Shown: positions 14,174-30,656, numbered from the stretch's first letter. The stretch is 64,000 nt of DNA from Chloroflexota bacterium (GCA_963662335.2 CAXXVD010000003.1:448001-512000); one strand, 5' to 3'. Notes: generated by a model not told the origin, from the sequence alone. Numbers and translations: made by a program.

Positions 14174-14545
14174 TCACACGTGCTGGTCTACCAGGATGGG
14201 ATTGCCGTCCGGGTCCACCGCCACGAAGCTTGCCGGGCCGGTGGTGTCCTCGTCGGCCTCGTTCACCAGGGCCACGCCCTGCGCCTTGAGCCGCCGCTGC
14301 AATGCGCGCACGTCGGTGAAACTCGCCAGCGGCTGCGCCTGGGCGTCCCACCCCGGATTGAACGTCAGGATATTCTGCTCGAACATCCCCTGAAACAACC
14401 CAATGGTGCACGCGCCGTTCCTGAGTATCAACCAGTTCTCCGCCGCGTCTCCGCCCACCACTTCAAACCCAAACTTGGCATAGAAGTCCCGCGATGCCGC
14501 GATGTCCTTGACCGCCAAGCTCACCGAAAACGCGCCGAGTTCCAT
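14174..14545 (-). CDS. VOC/glyoxalase family protein
   Basis: [15 protein letters not shown]...[19 protein letters not shown]. Confidence 0.92.
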
Positions 14546-14606
14546 GAGATTGCTCCTATAGAAGCGTGCATTGAGAATTACGCGCACTTGGCTACCACAG
14601 TGCTCA

Positions 14607-14725
14607 AAGAGTCCGTGATAGCCACGAATCCGTCATCACCACGAGTCCTCCACAGCCACGAGTCACGCATGACCAAGAGTCCTTCATAGCCGCGAGTCAC
14701 CCATAGCCACGAGTCCGTCATTGCC
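14607..14725. repeat. Degenerate 17-bp tandem array, 7 units (consensus ACGAGTCCGTCATAGCC)
   Basis: Units start at 14607, 14624, 14641, 14658, 14675, 14692 and 14709; each has GA(G/A)TC at the same offset and ends in CC. Confidence 0.9.
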
Positions 14726-14821
14726 ACGAAGACAGCGCGCCCGCCTCCGTCATTCCCGCGAAAGCGGGAATCCATCTTCTCTTGTCACCACCAGACCCAC
14801 CCACACGCAACTTCACCACCC

Positions 14822-15046
14822 CTACCGCTCGTTCATCTCATCCCGCGTGAACTTCCGTCCGCTGCTGTCAATCGTCTCCTGCAACTCCCGGATAGTCGCC
14901 AGCGCCCTCTCCGCCTGCCACCTGCGCCCGGCATACTCCGCCAGCCACCCCTCAAAGAGCGCTTCCAAAGTCGTCCCCTCCGCCGCAGCCCGCCGCCGCG
15001 CGGCCTCGAGCAAGCCCGGGTCCGCGCTCAGGGTTATGTTCTTCAT
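14822..15046 (-). CDS. Ribbon-helix-helix antitoxin-like protein (DUF6364/VapB-like), no adjacent toxin gene
   Basis: MKNITLS.D..LLE.AR..A...GTTL and terminal FTRDEMNER; GAGG RBS. Confidence 0.75.
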   Translation of the reverse strand: MKNITLSADPGLLEAARRRAAAEGTTLEALFEGWLAEYAGRRWQAERALATIRELQETIDSSGRKFTRDEMNER

Positions 15047-15276
15047 GTCGTCAACCTCATTGGTATGGTTGTCGTCTACGGCCCGCTTCTTTGAAGTCAG
15101 TCCTGCGGCTATGTGACACCCTCAATCACGCGCCTCATGGCTTGGAATCGGGGCAATTGCGCAGGTTGCTTTGGCAGTAAGTGTTAAGTTTATCTGAGTG
15201 TGATGCGCTTGTATAATGGACAGTGTGAAGTAGGAGTGGCTGGCTACAAGACGGTCCGTGCGATTGGAGGTGCGCC

Positions 15277-15507
15277 ATGAGTACGAACGAGAAACCTACC
15301 GCGAAAACCAGCGCGCAGGATGAATCCGCTCTGGTACGGCACTTCGTCTTTATCGCTATAGTTCGCCATTTCCTGAAGTCGTCCCACCGGTACCTCACGC
15401 AGTCCTACGACGACTTTGGCAAGGGCTGGGAAGAGGATTCCTATGATTGGCCGGGAAGCGCCTGGAAACGAAACGGATCGGCCATTGGTGGAATCTTCCG
15501 CAGATGA
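15277..15507 (+). CDS. Small hypothetical protein
   Basis: GGAGG RBS and an upstream TATAAT; no recognisable family. Confidence 0.4.
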   Translation: MSTNEKPTAKTSAQDESALVRHFVFIAIVRHFLKSSHRYLTQSYDDFGKGWEEDSYDWPGSAWKRNGSAIGGIFRR

Positions 15508-15591
15508 AGCCTCCGATTCACGCTACAATAGAGTTGAATCATTGGATAGCTGCTAATTCGTGGCGGCAAAGTACGAAAGGATGGGGTTTGA

Positions 15592-16320
15592 ATGACTGTT
15601 TGTATAGCCGCGTTGTACGAGGATGGTGATGGTGTAGTGCTCGCTTCAGACCATATGGTTACGACTTCTTACCCTATGCCATATGAGTTTGAGAACGATG
15701 AGATGAGCAAAATTCATAGAATGAGCGAACACGCGCCAATATTTGCGCTCGCCGCTGGCGACTTGGTGAACGGCAACGAAATGCTAGACCATGCTCAGAT
15801 GGAAGTTGCCCGACAAGAAGTCGCAAGAGAAAATGGCATCACGGCCGATCAAGTGGCAGAGATAGTACGCATGTGCTACTCATCCCTGCGCCTCAAGCTT
15901 GCTGTAAGTCTACACTTGGAACCAAGAGGCATGGATCACCCGACTTTCATTAGTAACCAGAATAACCTGACCCCGCAACTCGCTCAGTACCTAGACCAAG
16001 CTATTGCCCAATTTGACATTGGAGTTGAGTTAATCGTTGCCGGGCCAACAAACGAGAAAGTTGGAATCTATCAGATCGTCCATCCCGGCGTGATCATTAA
16101 TGCCACTTCGATCGGCTATGCTGCAATTGGAAGTGGCGCCCCTCATGCTATCTATTCGTTCATCGAGCAACCATACAAGCAATCTTTCAATAGGCAAGAA
16201 GCAGAGGCCGGAGTGCAAGCCGCCAAGAGGCGAAGTGAAGTGGCTCCCGGCGTAGGTGAGAAGACCTCAACCGAAATCGTCTGCATCGCTGAGGAGGAGA
16301 CCGATGCTCGGTCAGGGTAG
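15592..16320 (+). CDS. Proteasome-beta/HslV-like Ntn-hydrolase (Thr1 protease)
   Basis: N-terminal M-T-VCIAA, VLASD, SKI, AAGD, ELIVAG, YAAIGSG and GVG match the Thr1/Asp17/Lys33/Gly47/Ser129 pattern. Confidence 0.82.
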   Translation: MTVCIAALYEDGDGVVLASDHMVTTSYPMPYEFENDEMSKIHRMSEHAPIFALAAGDLVNGNEMLDHAQMEVARQEVARENGITADQVAEIVRMCYSSLRLKLAVSLHLEPRGMDHPTFISNQNNLTPQLAQYLDQAIAQFDIGVELIVAGPTNEKVGIYQIVHPGVIINATSIGYAAIGSGAPHAIYSFIEQPYKQSFNRQEAEAGVQAAKRRSEVAPGVGEKTSTEIVCIAEEETDARSG

Positions 16321-16528
16321 CGACTCCATGCTGGACCGGCTGCAACCAGTCCCGATAGACTACCTTCCAGACAAGAAGGCTGCTGGCGGGTACAAGTATA
16401 CTCCCCCGCGGGCAAGATACGCGCCACCTCCAAGTGCAAAGTACACACCACCCAAGGTGGCGTACTCTCCTCCACCTTCCATTGGCAAGGGGCCTAAGCC
16501 GCCTGCATTTTCGCCGCCACACCCTTAG
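16304..16528 (+). CDS. 74-aa proline-rich peptide with repeated (Y/F)-x-P-P units
   Basis: GAGGAGGAG RBS inside the protease 3' end; the repeats are conserved in protein but synonymously diverged in DNA. Confidence 0.7.
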   Translation: MLGQGSDSMLDRLQPVPIDYLPDKKAAGGYKYTPPRARYAPPPSAKYTPPKVAYSPPPSIGKGPKPPAFSPPHP

Positions 16529-16681
16529 CTTACGGTTGGCAGCCATAGTACACAGCCCCTATTCCATTTTGTGCTCGTCCAAATTGCAGCGCCAACCAGT
16601 TGCTCGCTCCGCAGTCGCAAAGAGCCAGGGTTTAGCGTGCCTTTAGGTATTCTGCCTTGACGTGATTTGGTTGCAGGCAAC

Positions 16682-19575
16682 CTATAGACGCCGGTTGGAG
16701 ATGACGGGTTCGGAGGCTAGGAGGCGGCGGAGGGTGGTGAGGTCGGGGAGGTTGAGGACTTGGGTGAGGCCGGTGTCCAGGGCTTGGCGGGCGGGGCAGT
16801 GGGCCATGTTGGGGAGACGCTCGAATTCGGCGGTGGCGAGGGTGTCGAAGAGGCGGGAGAGGGAGCGGAGTTGGGAGGCGGTGAGGTGGCGTGGGTCGAG
16901 AACGGGAACGTCTTCAAGGTCGGCCTTTTTCAATTGTACCCAACTACCTTCAGTAGTGTTGCGATTCGCCAGCAATGTCAAGATGCCTAAGCTGCTATTC
17001 ATATAGATCGCCAAGGCCCTGTCCCAGGTTTGATCATTAGTCTTGACTGGCCACCAGACATTGGACAAAACCGGCTTGTCGGCGGACAAAGCTACGACTC
17101 GCGCCGTATTCAGCCTTAGCCGTTGAACGACCAGGAGCGAGGCTGCTTTCGGCCAAAGTTGGTCAATACGTTTGAGTCGTCGGCCCGGGCGTGGCTCCGC
17201 GAGCGGGGCCAAGTGCTTATCCGGCTGCACGGTCATGCGCTTCCTGTGTTCAGTCTTGTTGCCCTCCACCATTGGATAGGCGGTAATTGCGTCCGTCGGG
17301 TCGAATCCGTCGCGCACGTCTCTAACGTCGGGGCCGATTGCACCGATTTCTCCTAGCGGGCAGAGGGGTATGCTGGCGGTTGAAACTTCGCCCGGCACCC
17401 AGACTTCCCCGGCGTCCAACAGTCGCACGGCGCTGCGGATGACGTCGGCACGGGCAAACTGGACGCCGAACCACTGCTTGCCAGAGAGGTCCGCTTCCGG
17501 AATCGAAACAACCTCTCCCACATGGCGGCCGTCTACTCCCAGGAGCGCCGTGCCTGTCTCTTCCAAGTTCGCCGGAGCTGTGGCGGAGACGGCTTGGGCG
17601 ACGCGGTGCGCGGCTGTGGGGCCATTGGGATTCTGCCAGAGGTTGACGAAGGTGGTGCGGGGTTGGGGGGCGTGCTGCTCATCAGGAGACGGATTCCGGC
17701 TTTCGCCGGAATGACGAGTGGAAGGGGATTGACGGGGTGAGGCGGTGGAGCGGCGCGTGGCGATGAGCAGCGCTTCCGAGAGGTCGGTGCTGTCGGAGAA
17801 GTTCCAGCGCTGGGGGTCGTGGGACGTTATCACCACATCGAGGGTGAAGTCCTGCTCGATCAGGGCGCGGGTCTGCGCCCAGGAGGGGCCGGTGCAGACG
17901 GTGAGGGGCAAGACCAAGGCGAGCCGGCCCTCGCCGGGCAGCATCTTGTCTGAAACGGCCGCCACGAACGCGGCGCCAAGTTCGGCAGTAGCGGAGGCTT
18001 GCCGCGACTTGAGGCGGCGCGACAGTTCGTCTTGCAGTTTGCGCCGTTCCGCCGGGGGCAGGCTGCCGAACAGCAGATTGCCGCCAACCGAGCGCGTAAA
18101 CGGCGGGTTCATGATCGCCAGGTCAAGTTTCGGCAGCTTTGCGGTCTGGCGTTCCGCCGCGCCGCCGGGCCCGCCGCCGGTTATGCGGCGCGCGTCCCCG
18201 GCTCGTCCGGCGACAGAGCGTGTTGCACCAGCGCCTCGTCCGTGCCCAGGTAGTCCAGCGACCCCAGGTTGACGCGCTCGCCCTCCACGCCCAGGGGCAT
18301 GACGTGGAGGTTCATGCGGTCGAACTCGATGTGGGGATTGAGCATCGCCAGGCTGGTGGCGGCGAAGTGGATGGCGGAAAGCTGCACGTCGTAGCCGTGC
18401 AGGGCCTGTTCCACCATGGCTTTGTGGAGCGCGGCGGCGCGGGCGCCGCCCGCGGCCTTGTGGCGGCGTTCCGCCTCGGCGGCTACGGCCATGAGCAGCG
18501 TGCCGGTGCCGCAGGCCAGGTCGGCCACGTTGAGCGAGGCGGGAAACTCGTGGTCGCGCCAGTCCACGCCCGGCGGCCACTCGTGGAAGACCAGCCGCGC
18601 CAGCAGCGTGGCGGCCGGCACGGACGTATAGTACGCGCCGGTGAACTTGGCGTCGGTTAAGAGCGTGTGGAAGAGCCGGCCGGAGAGGTCGTGGCCTTCC
18701 ACCTTGCGCGTCTCGTCCACCGCCTTGACCAGCGGCGCGATGACGGGCGTGCGCACGTCGGCCGGCCCGTCCAGCAGCACGTCCAGGATGTCGGCGGCCA
18801 GTGCAAAGACCGGCACGTAGTCGATTTCCTTGCAGATGAAGCGCCAGGCGTCCCGCAGGCTGGGAAGGCCTCGGCTCGAGGCTTCGCGGACAGTTTTCAC
18901 GTCATCGTTCTCATCGGCCAGGCGGTCCTGGAAGGCAAGGGCGTTGAAGAGCGCCAAGCAGCCGATGCGCAAGGCGGCGGCGCGGTTCTTCTCCTGGTCG
19001 GTCTCGGCAATGAGGTCGGCGATGCGGCGGGCGCTGCGCTGGTGCTGGGCAAGCGGGTACACTGCCTGCTCCAAGGCGTATTCAATCGCGCCGGCGGCGG
19101 CCTGCACCTGGTCGATGCCTTGCAATTCCAAAGGCAGGGTGCGCAGGTGGTCGGCCAGGTCGTCAACGGAGCCGCCGCTCATGCGGCGCGGCGCGGGCGG
19201 CGCGTCCTCGGCCAGATCGAGCAGCGTGGGCCGCGCGGCCTGCCACCACTGGAGGTCAACCGCGGACTCCAGCGCGGCCTGGGTGTCGTCGTCATGCCTG
19301 ATGCGCTCGGGATAGAGCACGCCGAGCACGGCGAGGGCTTCCGGATAGGCGGCCAGGCGCGCTTGGAGTTGGGCTTCCAGTTGACTCTCCGCGCCCTGCC
19401 ACTTGCACTCCAGGAGGATCAGGCCGCTGCGCACGTTGACGCGCACGTCGGGCGCGCCCCGCCGGCTGCGGCGTTCGGCCCTGGCCCTCATGCCGCGGGC
19501 AGAGAGCATTTCCGCCAGCAGGACGTTGACGGCTTCTTCGCGGGTGGTTTCGGTTGGTTTGAGGCGAGATGCCAT
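16682..19575 (-). pseudogene. Type IIG-like restriction-modification fusion (PD-(D/E)xK nuclease, N6-adenine methyltransferase, specificity region), split by one frameshift near 18196
   Basis: PD...LECK and motif I DLACGTGTLL lie in ORF 18181-19575; motif IV IMNPPF and the C-terminus lie in another frame (16682 to about 18196). Confidence 0.85.
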
Positions 19576-19635
19576 GGTCTTTCGATGCCTTGTAGGGTTT
19601 GCCGCTGTGGGCACTTAGACTTTAGCACGCCGGCG

Positions 19636-19662: not shown

Positions 19663-20022
19663 GCCTGTTGGTTAATTGGGCAGAAGCGTTCTTGTGATGA
19701 TCTGCCGAATAGGTACGAAAGCATTGGAGGCAAGCCGCCGCGCAACGGCTGGGCTGCCAAGAGGCGGGGGACAAGCCCCCGCGCTACGTTGTTGTGATTG
19801 CGCGTGAGATTCCCCGCTCACCCCGGCCCTCTCCCGGCGGGAGAGCTGACTGGGGTATGTAAGTGTCATTCCGAGCGCAGCGAGGAATCTAAAGATGCCG
19901 GTTTTGTAAGGCTGCGCTCTAGATTCCTCTCTCCGCTACGCTCCGTTCGGAATGACACGTTTAGTCGGCTATTGTATACATACCCCTGTCAGCGGCGGGA
20001 GAGGGAGAAATCGGATCGCGCC

Positions 20023-29267: not shown

Positions 29268-30656
29268 TTGAGTGACACTGAAAGTTTTGCATGTGAACAA
29301 GGGGAGTTTACGGATGTCGAGGGTGCACCCTTTGCTTATGATGCAGGGTTGATTGATCAAATTGAGGAACTAGATTGTCGCGTTCGAGCAATGCGCGAGG
29401 TAGGCAAGTTGGCGCCAGAAGTTCTGGGACGAATTCGTCAGTACTTCCGCATAAAGAGCATTTATCACTCAAACGCAATAGAGGGCAACCTGCTTGACAT
29501 CGGCGAGACGCGCCAGGTTGTTGAGGCAGGCTTGACGATTGCAGGAAAACCTCTCAAGGATCAAGCTGAAGCGAAGAACCTAAACCAAGCTCTAGATTTC
29601 TTGGAACAGTTGGCATCTAGCACAGAGGAACAAATATCGATTAGCGACATAAGGCAAATCCACAAGCTAATCCTTCAAGGAATTGACGATGACAATGCTG
29701 GGGCGTACCGAAGTGTAGATGTGGCAATTTCGGGGTCGGACTTTTCTCCTCCCGAACCGATTGATGTCGAACCCCAAATGCGGGATTTCATTGAGTGGTT
29801 GGGCCCTGCTTCGCTCAAGTTCGGTGAAGATATCATTGAGACTGCTGCCGCCTGTCATGCCTGGTTCGCTCAAGTTCACCCGTTTGCAGATGGCAACGGA
29901 CGAACTGCTCGTATCCTGATGAACCTCGTCTTGATGAGAGCCGGGTACCCCATCGCAGTGATTACACGTGACGATCGAGCGCGTTACTACGATGCTCTAG
30001 AGGAATCCCAGGCATCGGACTTAACTCCATTCATCGCACTAATACTTGAGTGTGTTTCTGAAACTCTCGAAGAGTACGAACAGGCAGCAGAGGAACAAAG
30101 GGAGCAAACCGAGTGGGCTGAATCGTTAGCCAGCCAATTCACTCAATCTGAGCAAATCCGCGCAAGAAACGAGTACGAACTTTGGAAAAGCGCTATGGAA
30201 CTCTTGGTCAACCACTATCAACAGCTTGTGCATCGGCTGGATGAGAGCGCCCAGCTTGGTAGAGTATACATAACCGTTTTTGGCGTCCTTGGATATGAGA
30301 AATACCTCGCGCTTAGTCAGAGGCAGTCAGCCAAGAAGACATGGTTCTTCCGAGTCGATTTTCGAAGTGGAGAAAAGTCAGCTAGGTATCTTCACTTCTT
30401 CGGTTACTCAAGCCCCCCTATGTCAGATCACGCAAGGGTCTCACTCTATTTGTCGAGAGAGGAGTCTCCGTTCTACTTTGAGAAGCTTGACAACTTGAGC
30501 ACGCCAAATGTACCGCCTTTGCGCGAAATTGGGTATGCGACAAGGGATGAGTTGTTTGTCGCGCGTTACGGCTATGCCCAGTGTGAAAAATCCAAAATAG
30601 AGAAAATCGCCACTGGCTTCTTTGAGGATGTAATCAGGTTTCACTTTAAACAATAG
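29268..30656 (+). CDS. Fic-domain protein with an uncharacterised C-terminal extension (lower-GC island)
   Basis: Catalytic HPFADGNGRTAR; autoinhibitory SNAIEGN; AGGAGG RBS. Confidence 0.93.
   Translation: MSDTESFACEQGEFTDVEGAPFAYDAGLIDQIEELDCRVRAMREVGKLAPEVLGRIRQYFRIKSIYHSNAIEGNLLDIGETRQVVEAGLTIAGKPLKDQAEAKNLNQALDFLEQLASSTEEQISISDIRQIHKLILQGIDDDNAGAYRSVDVAISGSDFSPPEPIDVEPQMRDFIEWLGPASLKFGEDIIETAAACHAWFAQVHPFADGNGRTARILMNLVLMRAGYPIAVITRDDRARYYDALEESQASDLTPFIALILECVSETLEEYEQAAEEQREQTEWAESLASQFTQSEQIRARNEYELWKSAMELLVNHYQQLVHRLDESAQLGRVYITVFGVLGYEKYLALSQRQSAKKTWFFRVDFRSGEKSARYLHFFGYSSPPMSDHARVSLYLSREESPFYFEKLDNLSTPNVPPLREIGYATRDELFVARYGYAQCEKSKIEKIATGFFEDVIRFHFKQ

Follow-up and report, generated by a model that had tools for sequence, protein, structure and literature searches.

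A 64,000-nucleotide (nt) stretch of genomic DNA from a Chloroflexota bacterium (GCA_963662335.2, CAXXVD010000003.1:448001-512000; here 'the window', with positions counted from its first letter) contains a foreign cassette of two overlapping genes. The first encodes a stand-alone threonine protease of the proteasome fold, the second a 74-residue peptide rich in tyrosine and proline. The protease has its catalytic residues intact, the borders of the cassette (15517-16680) are given by comparison with other genomes of the genus, homologs of the protease are likewise paired with a micro-protein gene, and some copies of the pair are carried by insertion sequences (IS) of the IS1 type.

The arrangement is best explained if a mobile module of two genes reached this genome by horizontal transfer and the cassette is a copy of it that has no transposase. 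Removal of the initiator methionine would expose the active site of the protease. The second gene would supply a translationally coupled micro-protein, with a short, helix-like conserved head and a fast-evolving, probably disordered tail; in the long-branch lineage of the window this partner would have diverged beyond recognition, or been replaced, leaving the repeat-bearing Y/P-rich peptide. The micro-protein would be the dedicated partner of the protease (an inhibitor, a gate or an adaptor) and the pair a self-contained conflict cargo, of benefit to the carrier DNA through addiction, stabilisation or defence. A role as conflict cargo would explain the carriage by IS1 elements, the spread across phyla and the filling of a slot that in congeners holds TIR and nuclease genes. 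Binding of the two products, the role of the partner and the cellular effect are what we infer; that the conserved head lets the micro-protein bind the protease and regulate it (or be regulated by it), and that the pair benefits its carrier DNA, is an evenly balanced proposition.

A stand-alone protease of the proteasome fold

The protease gene (15592-16320, plus strand) encodes 242 residues and opens with MTVCIAAL; no in-frame start lies upstream of it in the open reading frames (ORFs) of the window. A first-pass annotation had proposed a protease of the N-terminal nucleophile (Ntn) type from the threonine directly after the start methionine and from Asp, Lys, Gly and GSG landmarks, and domain search, structure prediction, structure comparison and the alignment of homologs all bear this out. 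The product passes the gathering cut-off of Pfam PF00227 (E=3e-11; 43.8 bits against 22.4) and stays below that of the archaeal beta model NCBIfam TIGR03634 (41.8 bits against 224). No other NCBIfam model matched at E<=1, the HslV model included, and no PADLOC model matched. A second PF00227 gene was not found in the genome, where this protease is the sole one found.

In the 28 aligned family members, T2, D20, K40, G56 and G180-S181-G182 show no or almost no variation. The correspondence of the first four to Thr1, Asp17, Lys33 and Gly47 is drawn from their position and from the account in PMC8665760. The AlphaFold2 model, built on the same 28-member alignment, reaches a predicted local distance difference test score (pLDDT) of 86.1 and a predicted template-modelling score (pTM) of 0.85, and the top 50 Foldseek matches of the model in the PDB are all 20S alpha or beta subunits (E down to 7.9e-12; query-normalised TM-score, TMq, 0.59-0.65). 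By sequence the relationship is distant: the 28-member profile finds archaeal alpha subunits best (E ~3e-5) and beta subunits from 0.011. HslV, Anbu and BPH are absent from the Foldseek top 50 and, like connectase, from the best 60 of the 67 PDB sequence matches to the profile. The evidence thus supports an Ntn/proteasome fold in which the Thr1 set is intact and a propeptide is lacking.

The model has two long helices, H1 and H2 (residues 58-78 and 85-108), followed by extra helices at 116-121 and 128-140 before the next strand, which together make up a helical insertion at about residues 109-140. The early strands are separated by a single 4-residue helix (31-34). No alpha subunit, HslU-type protein or other recurring large partner is encoded in the window or around 36 homologous loci, and AAA+ families are missing from the recurrent neighbours of these loci. 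The annotation had remarked on the lack of alpha-subunit, HslU and Anbu partner genes, and indeed none lies beside the cassette or recurs around these loci.

An overlapping gene for a Y/P-rich peptide

The second ORF (16304-16528, plus strand) begins with ATG at 16304 and ends with the stop codon at 16526-16528, so that it overlaps the protease ORF by 17 nt. A strong Shine-Dalgarno sequence, GAGGAGGAG, is found at 16291-16299, 4 nt 5' of the ATG; an alternative GTG start at 16256 would give a 90-residue product. The peptide has a 29-residue head ending in AAGG and then three Y/K/P-rich units of about 15 residues, in the order KYTPPRARYAPPPSA, KYTPPKVAYSPPPSI and a third, looser unit; its C-terminus is SPPHP and its GG is internal. 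The ribosome-binding site, the AAGG head and the Y/P units had all been described beforehand, with coordinates and sequence that agree with those given here.

The codons point to a real gene. The two 15-residue units share 10 of 15 residues and use different codons at 8 of those 10; by codon position 1, 2 and 3, the identities are 10, 10 and 3 of 15, and at least 12 of 22 mismatches falling on third positions has a hypergeometric p of 0.0037. Tandem Repeats Finder (TRF) detects no tandem repeat in the ORF at the DNA level. The proline codons of the peptide (CCA 7, CCT 6, CCG 4, CCC 2) resemble those of the protease, whereas three host genes use CCC 29, CCG 37, CCT 4 and CCA 0 times. The length of the ORF alone is weak evidence, since 5.2% of shuffles of 16256-16528 keep the frame open. 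ESM Atlas gave no usable match with the window peptide or with the partner from locus L012 (described below), Pfam had no match to five small ORFs, and the sequencing runs found to contain the stretch, four runs of one study that is probably its source, include none listed as RNA sequencing. There is evidence, then, for a real gene in the sequence pattern of this one genome, despite the lack of a homolog. The likeness to extensin or to WW/SH3 ligands that had been seen in the peptide is compositional only. In composition, the Y/P-rich tail is also reminiscent of proline-rich antimicrobial peptides.

A protease family with a micro-protein partner

A word-indexed search returned 358 homologs of the window protease, the best non-self match being 50% identical. 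Among fused or longer forms there is one 446-residue protein that covers 40% of the query and is attributed to an odd gene call. When one genome of each prokaryotic species was scanned, 42 loci emerged (43 including the window), with hosts in the Dehalococcoidia and other Chloroflexota, Alpha- and Gammaproteobacteria, Acidobacteriota, Actinomycetota, Latescibacterota, Thermodesulfobacteriota and Saccharibacteria, and in a Promethearchaeota metagenome-assembled genome (MAG).

In almost every close relative of the window protease, a small ORF lies in the DNA downstream of the gene. A profile made from 24 of these ORFs matches 33 of the 42 loci, always directly 3' of the protease gene; the nine loci that it misses (L026, L032, L034, L036, L037 and L039-L042) have proteases at most 37% identical to the query, except for L026. 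The profile has no match in the window or in the further loci L043-L057, and it does not match the longer proteases of a distant subgroup, as a fused partner would. Searched against 1.84 billion proteins it retrieves 110 representatives, all but two of 40-96 residues, so there are no informative fusions.

The family partner is 55-75 residues long in total. Its head reads K-W-x-E-A-E-R-x-L, with W14, A17 and R19 invariant and E18 nearly so in the 24 aligned sequences; the rest is variable and often proline-rich, without a conserved GG. The start of the small ORF falls between -23 and +24 nt from the end of the protease stop codon in each of the 24 pairs, which makes the 17-nt overlap in the window typical of the family. 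Judged from gene order and spacing, a translationally coupled small ORF directly 3' is supported as a family-wide feature. A two-gene system had been proposed from the window alone, together with a scan downstream of the homologs; with a small ORF following in 33 of 42 loci, the objection that homologs lack a downstream ORF does not hold. The pairing stands for the family, but the peptide of the window is unlike the family partner, and the description of the partner as a GG-(YxPP)n peptide is not upheld by a head of the K-W-x-E-A-E-R type, a variable tail and the missing GG.

A maximum-likelihood tree of 34 proteases (the 24 of the partner set, the window and 9 distant ones) places the window inside the partner-bearing clade with support of 97/95, on a terminal branch 0.97 long, where the median is 0.4. 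Degraded, duplicate or fragmentary sequences were left out of the tree (L008, L010, L015, L029-L031, L033, L035, L038, L041 and L045-L047). The window peptide is the positional equivalent of the family partner, without detectable homology. The simplest reading of the sequences is that, in this lineage, either the partner gene has changed so much that it can no longer be recognised or another has taken its place. A stretch of the peptide that might be left over from the partner head ('IDY..DKK' against 'QDYKKKW') was noticed by eye only, is not significant and was discarded. Co-folding of the L012 protease with its partner gave a score of 0.00 and bears on no reading either way.

The cassette could instead be a decaying relic, in which the true K-W-E-A-E-R partner has been lost, the 74-residue ORF is accidental or non-functional and the protease is an orphan heading for loss. 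The lack of similarity to the partner profile, the share of shuffles that keep the frame open, the long protease branch with changes at otherwise invariant positions, the absence of any remaining transposase or inverted repeats, and the existence of degraded copies elsewhere (L010, L029, L035, L038) would all fit such a fate. It is nevertheless fairly unlikely: the protease ORF is unbroken and keeps every catalytic landmark, an ATG with a strong Shine-Dalgarno sequence opens the small ORF at the position typical of the family, and the repeats of the peptide are kept as amino acids with randomised third positions and with the codon usage of the protease. In the degraded copies L010, L029, L031, L035 and L038 the broken gene is that of the protease in all five; the protease is a mutational target about four times larger, so nothing is concluded from which gene decays first.

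A further member of the class, G053, carries two 154-residue fragments of a distant homolog (L046 and L047) with equal scores at two places in its genome, as well as a full 278-residue copy (L044) with a C-terminal helical extension. The two fragments may represent another repeated element.

Carriage by IS1-type elements

When ORFs of at least 80 residues around the 43 loci were clustered, a single recurrent neighbour emerged, present in 11 loci, downstream and on the same strand. In 4 of 4 scanned of these 11 it is an IS1 transposase (PF03400, E 4e-8 to 8e-6), encoded as a single ORF. One such element is that of L012, from an Acidobacteriota MAG: a unit of 2304-2305 bp occurs in three loci at 99.96-100% identity, is bounded by 20-nt terminal inverted repeats that are 95% complementary, and contains in order a 73-residue ORF, the protease, the partner and the transposase. 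A fourth copy in the same MAG is interrupted by ~1.5 kb, and a copy in a second MAG is cut by the contig end. L007 (Alphaproteobacteria) and L040 (Xanthobacteraceae) also have the entire unit between similar inverted repeats; the L040 protease belongs to a distant, partner-profile-negative branch. A simple search found no enclosing inverted repeats for L024, L035, L029 and L010. A PF03400 transposase together with terminal inverted repeats, the mark of IS1 cargo, is thus found in L012, L007 and L040 and not in the window, where neither an IS1-type transposase ORF nor convincing inverted or direct repeats flank the cassette.

An additional ORF of 73-80 residues, with an end resembling R-R-S-E-I-A-R-x-A-A-x-A-R-W, accompanies the module in IS1-borne copies (L012:3706-3927, plus strand). 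It lies upstream in L007, L010, L012 and L040 and downstream in L042, and has no Pfam match.

The module might serve the IS1 element itself, for example through a protease that limits the lifetime of the transposase or tunes transposition, with the standalone copies as leftovers. Such an accessory function would account for the position inside the inverted repeats in three phylogenetically distant cases, together with the upstream small ORF, for the linkage to IS1 in both deep protease branches (L040 on one side; L012, L007 and L024 on the other) and for the single-ORF type of transposase. It is quite unlikely, given that no IS1 transposase adjoins the module in 32 of 43 loci, most of which have both genes intact, and that the cassette of the window has neither transposase nor inverted repeats.

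A bolder form of the conflict-cargo proposal is that one IS1-family lineage carried the Thr1 protease and its micro-protein across phyla as integral cargo, an undescribed addiction or defence module in which the head would dock on the protease, the proline-rich tail would be a regulated or released effector, and the standalone copies would have been domesticated or stranded in defence hot spots. This is distinctly doubtful.

A recent import into a variable slot

Homology with five congeners extends up to window position 15516 and restarts at 16681-16689, which delimits the unique segment 15517-16680 (1164 bp). The protease and peptide ORFs are the only two in this segment, with no ligase, transporter or modifying enzyme. 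They are preceded by the 75-nt 5' end of the imported cassette (15517-15591, plus strand), which holds an AAGGA-type ribosome-binding site for the protease and begins where homology with G003 stops, and are followed by a unique 3' tail (16529-16680, plus strand) that is non-coding as far as seen, with no terminator-like site and no Rfam match (Rfam searched over 14400-16900). The left junction cuts a host gene. Its remnant (15416-15516, plus strand) keeps the first 34 codons of a gene of 148-183 residues in G003 and G004, the product of which has a hydrophobic stretch; 27 of the 34 residues are identical to the start of the 183-residue ORF of G003.

The composition of the segment is likewise foreign. 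The lower-GC island noticed in the first-pass annotation is evident, with a GC content of 0.485-0.53 across 15200-16400 against 0.62-0.73 in the surroundings, and it does adjoin a methyltransferase gene. At third codon positions, the GC content is 0.52 in the protease gene and 0.57 in the peptide gene, compared with 0.87-0.88 in two host genes. The protease was found in 0 of 16 same-genus genomes and in 3 of 61 relatives, the genome of the window counted, where the other two are 32-35% identical. The protease and the peptide are a recent import in this genome, and the sequence supports a joint entry of both genes as foreign DNA.

In other members of the genus the same slot is occupied by different genes. 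G003 and G005 have a 362-373-residue TIR protein of the CAP12/Pycsar type (PF10137, E=7e-18 and 9e-20; PADLOC PDC-S35), and G004 has a 371-residue protein with a pPIWI-associated nuclease domain (PF18165, E=6e-41). The adjoining methyltransferase gene is kept at 76-78% in G003-G005; G001 and G016 have neither slot cargo nor this gene at the locus. The TIR and nuclease cargo of congeners places the cassette in a cargo-swapping, defence-type hot spot. This slot suggests a link to defence, and it is the sole evidence in the analysis that points there specifically.

It is extremely unlikely that the protease has an ordinary proteostatic role, as an ATP-independent, self-compartmentalising peptidase for unfolded proteins with the small ORF as an assembly factor or cap. 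The proteasome fold, the intact active site and the lack of an AAA+ partner are compatible with such a role, and the discussion in PMC8665760 raises it as an option for partner-less homologs. The patchy, strain-specific distribution, the foreign composition and the carriage by insertion sequences make it a poor fit to a housekeeping function.

Weighing the proposed role

The flanks of the family loci are heterogeneous: 137 flanking ORFs from 36 loci (L008, L020 and the duplicates L015, L030, L031 and L033 left out) match 141 Pfam families, and the families matched by at least three of these ORFs are IS1 transposase (4), N6_N4 methylase (3) and DDE_Tnp_1 (3). No component of the cassette or of the IS1-borne elements matches a known toxin or antitoxin family in Pfam or PADLOC.

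Several results weigh against a conflict module whose second gene is the counterpart of the family partner. Concerning the peptide, no homolog was found in an index of 5.8 billion proteins, which makes it a one-genome orphan; hmmsearch with an earlier build of the partner profile over six frames of 14900-17000 reached a best E of 0.76, and hhalign of the 24-partner profile against the peptide gave a probability of 0.06%. The claim that the synonymous differences between the repeats reflect selection on the protein draws support from the 10/10/3 pattern, but one antisense frame with the same wobble positions is equally compatible (8/14 identities), so that the pattern by itself does not settle the strand. 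Concerning the protease, 40 positions do not vary among the other 24 family members; a comparison by eye found 5 of them changed in the window, and these changes could reflect relaxed selection. Concerning expression, no sigma-70-like promoter was found in 14900-16800, and the terminator scan found none for the cassette, its one terminator-like site (15067) lying upstream and not belonging to it.

As for defence and mobility, only DNA methyltransferase models recur when the 137 flanking ORFs are compared with PADLOC (3 ORFs), and methyltransferase and mad models make up the whole list of 25 PADLOC families, with no other defence family among them. A tblastn search of plasmid and phage collections had no match, and 2.9 million viral contigs of IMG/VR contain 2 loci only. 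The defence role that had been suggested for the pair thus has the slot with its TIR and nuclease genes in its favour, but defence genes are not abundant around the family loci in general.

Comparison with known systems

The fold and the catalytic landmarks are shared with 20S beta subunits, HslV, Anbu and BPH. Unlike a 20S beta subunit, the window protease has no alpha subunit in its genome and falls below the TIGR03634 cut-off. HslV has the gene of its AAA+ partner HslU adjacent to it; the cassette is flanked instead by a gene remnant and a methyltransferase gene, with no HslU. Anbu is encoded in an operon with transglutaminase-like, ATP-grasp and alpha-E genes, none of which is found beside the cassette or among the 25 Pfam families listed for the 137 neighbours.

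Insertion sequences and transposons can carry passenger modules such as toxin-antitoxin pairs. The family resembles these in its compact cassette of two overlapping genes, placed inside inverted repeats and present in multiple identical copies; it differs in that no known toxin or antitoxin is matched and that the large component is a Thr1 protease. Pup-like tags end in GGQ or GGE and require a ligase, and double-glycine leader peptides are processed by C39 peptidase-transporters. The peptide of the window differs from both: its GG is internal, its end is SPPHP, and its cassette has only the two ORFs.

Among described groups of proteasome homologs, the PHI group is the closest by description. 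In their catalogue, Fuchs, Alva and Lupas 2021 (PMC8665760) report having found no genomic context that suggests a function for proteasome homologs. They describe a long helical insertion after H1/H2 in PHI and, in the PMI groups, an insertion between H3 and H4 as well. The window protease shares with PHI the helices at 116-121 and 128-140 between H2 and the next strand, the Thr1, Asp, Lys and Gly residues, the lack of a propeptide and of an AAA+ partner, the patchy occurrence across bacteria and archaea and the similarity to both alpha and beta subunits. It differs in the conserved micro-protein gene and in the carriage by IS1, the comparison being one of descriptions only. The PMI groups differ by their H3-H4 insertion, which the window model does not have. 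With the insertion after H1/H2 present and none between H3 and H4, PHI is the best fit by description, and the enzyme was probably catalogued in 2021 as an uncharacterised subfamily.

Connectase is a relative with the proteasome fold that acts as a ligase (PMC7980362). According to PMC8665760 it is without helices H1 and H2, has a two-helix insertion between S3 and S4 and is restricted to methanogens (Table 1). The likeness lies in a proteasome fold and in the feature, on connectase's side, of acting on a specific protein partner without an unfoldase; the window model differs, as it keeps H1/H2, has no S3-S4 helical insertion and carries its insertion elsewhere.

These comparisons bear on the proposal of the first-pass annotation that the GG-(YxPP)n peptide serves a defence system as its dedicated substrate or tag, cut after the AAGG head or ligated to targets in the manner of connectase. 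The peptide gene is coupled to that of the protease and appears to be under protein-level constraint, a relative of the same fold is a ligase according to PMC7980362, and the cassette sits in a defence-type slot, all as this proposal would have it. It is very unlikely all the same. No GG is conserved in the 24 family partners, the connectase signature as described in PMC8665760 is absent from the model, the 1164-bp cassette holds no ligase, transporter or modifying enzyme beside its two ORFs, and the peptide is known from a single genome. Nothing here supports cleavage after GG, tagging or ligation.

Other features of the region

The DNA methyltransferase-like gene next to the cassette (16682-19614, minus strand) is context and lies outside it. 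It consists of two overlapping ORFs (18181-19614 and 16682-18580) with weak methyltransferase matches (PADLOC MTase_II, E=1.1e-7, weak). The two ORFs overlap by 400 nt; by eye, the upstream one contains DLACGTGTLL, which resembles motif I, and the downstream one NPPF. A frameshift or an error in assembly probably accounts for the split. A weak Vsr-like match (E=5e-4) falls in the N-terminal part of the gene.

In G003, the slot also holds a gene for a 98-residue beta-flower protein (PF21784, E=1e-12) with a collagen-like Gly-x-y tail (L053:1726-2022, minus strand), between the hydrophobic-stretch gene and the TIR gene. In the window, a 76-residue ORF at 15277-15507 (plus strand) is 82% identical to an ORF of G003 and matches no known family. 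In another frame it runs across the start of the truncated host gene, and either frame may be the real gene. Further upstream, a 74-residue gene at 14822-15046 (minus strand) is present in all five congeners and has a weak CcdA-antitoxin-like match (E=0.061), with no toxin gene recognised alongside.

Repeats bracket the variable region on both sides. On the left, a core of 33-70 nt within 14714-14784 recurs at 85-100% identity in many places in each of the five congeners and so looks like a genus-wide dispersed repeat; on the right, a repeat of ~100 nt (19859-19964) has dozens of loci at 75-98% identity in every congener searched. A tandem array of 17 nt (34 nt) with ~6.6 copies occupies 14609-14730. 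Elsewhere in the window, a second low-GC ORF at 29268-30656 (plus strand; 462 residues, GC 0.49) has a third-position GC content of 0.50 against ~0.87 for the genome, and is probably another foreign gene.

Significance

Proteasome homologs without an unfoldase are numerous, and roles are known for almost none. The literature searched yielded no report that links proteasome homologs to insertion sequences or that describes pairing with a micro-protein; the conserved micro-protein partner, the carriage by IS1 and the placement in a defence slot appear to be new. The family offers a testable handle on such enzymes in the form of a two-gene cassette of ~1 kb. If the proposed function in addiction or defence is true, a class of threonine proteases would be added to the repertoire of conflict systems, and the family would illustrate how an insertion sequence can carry a protease.

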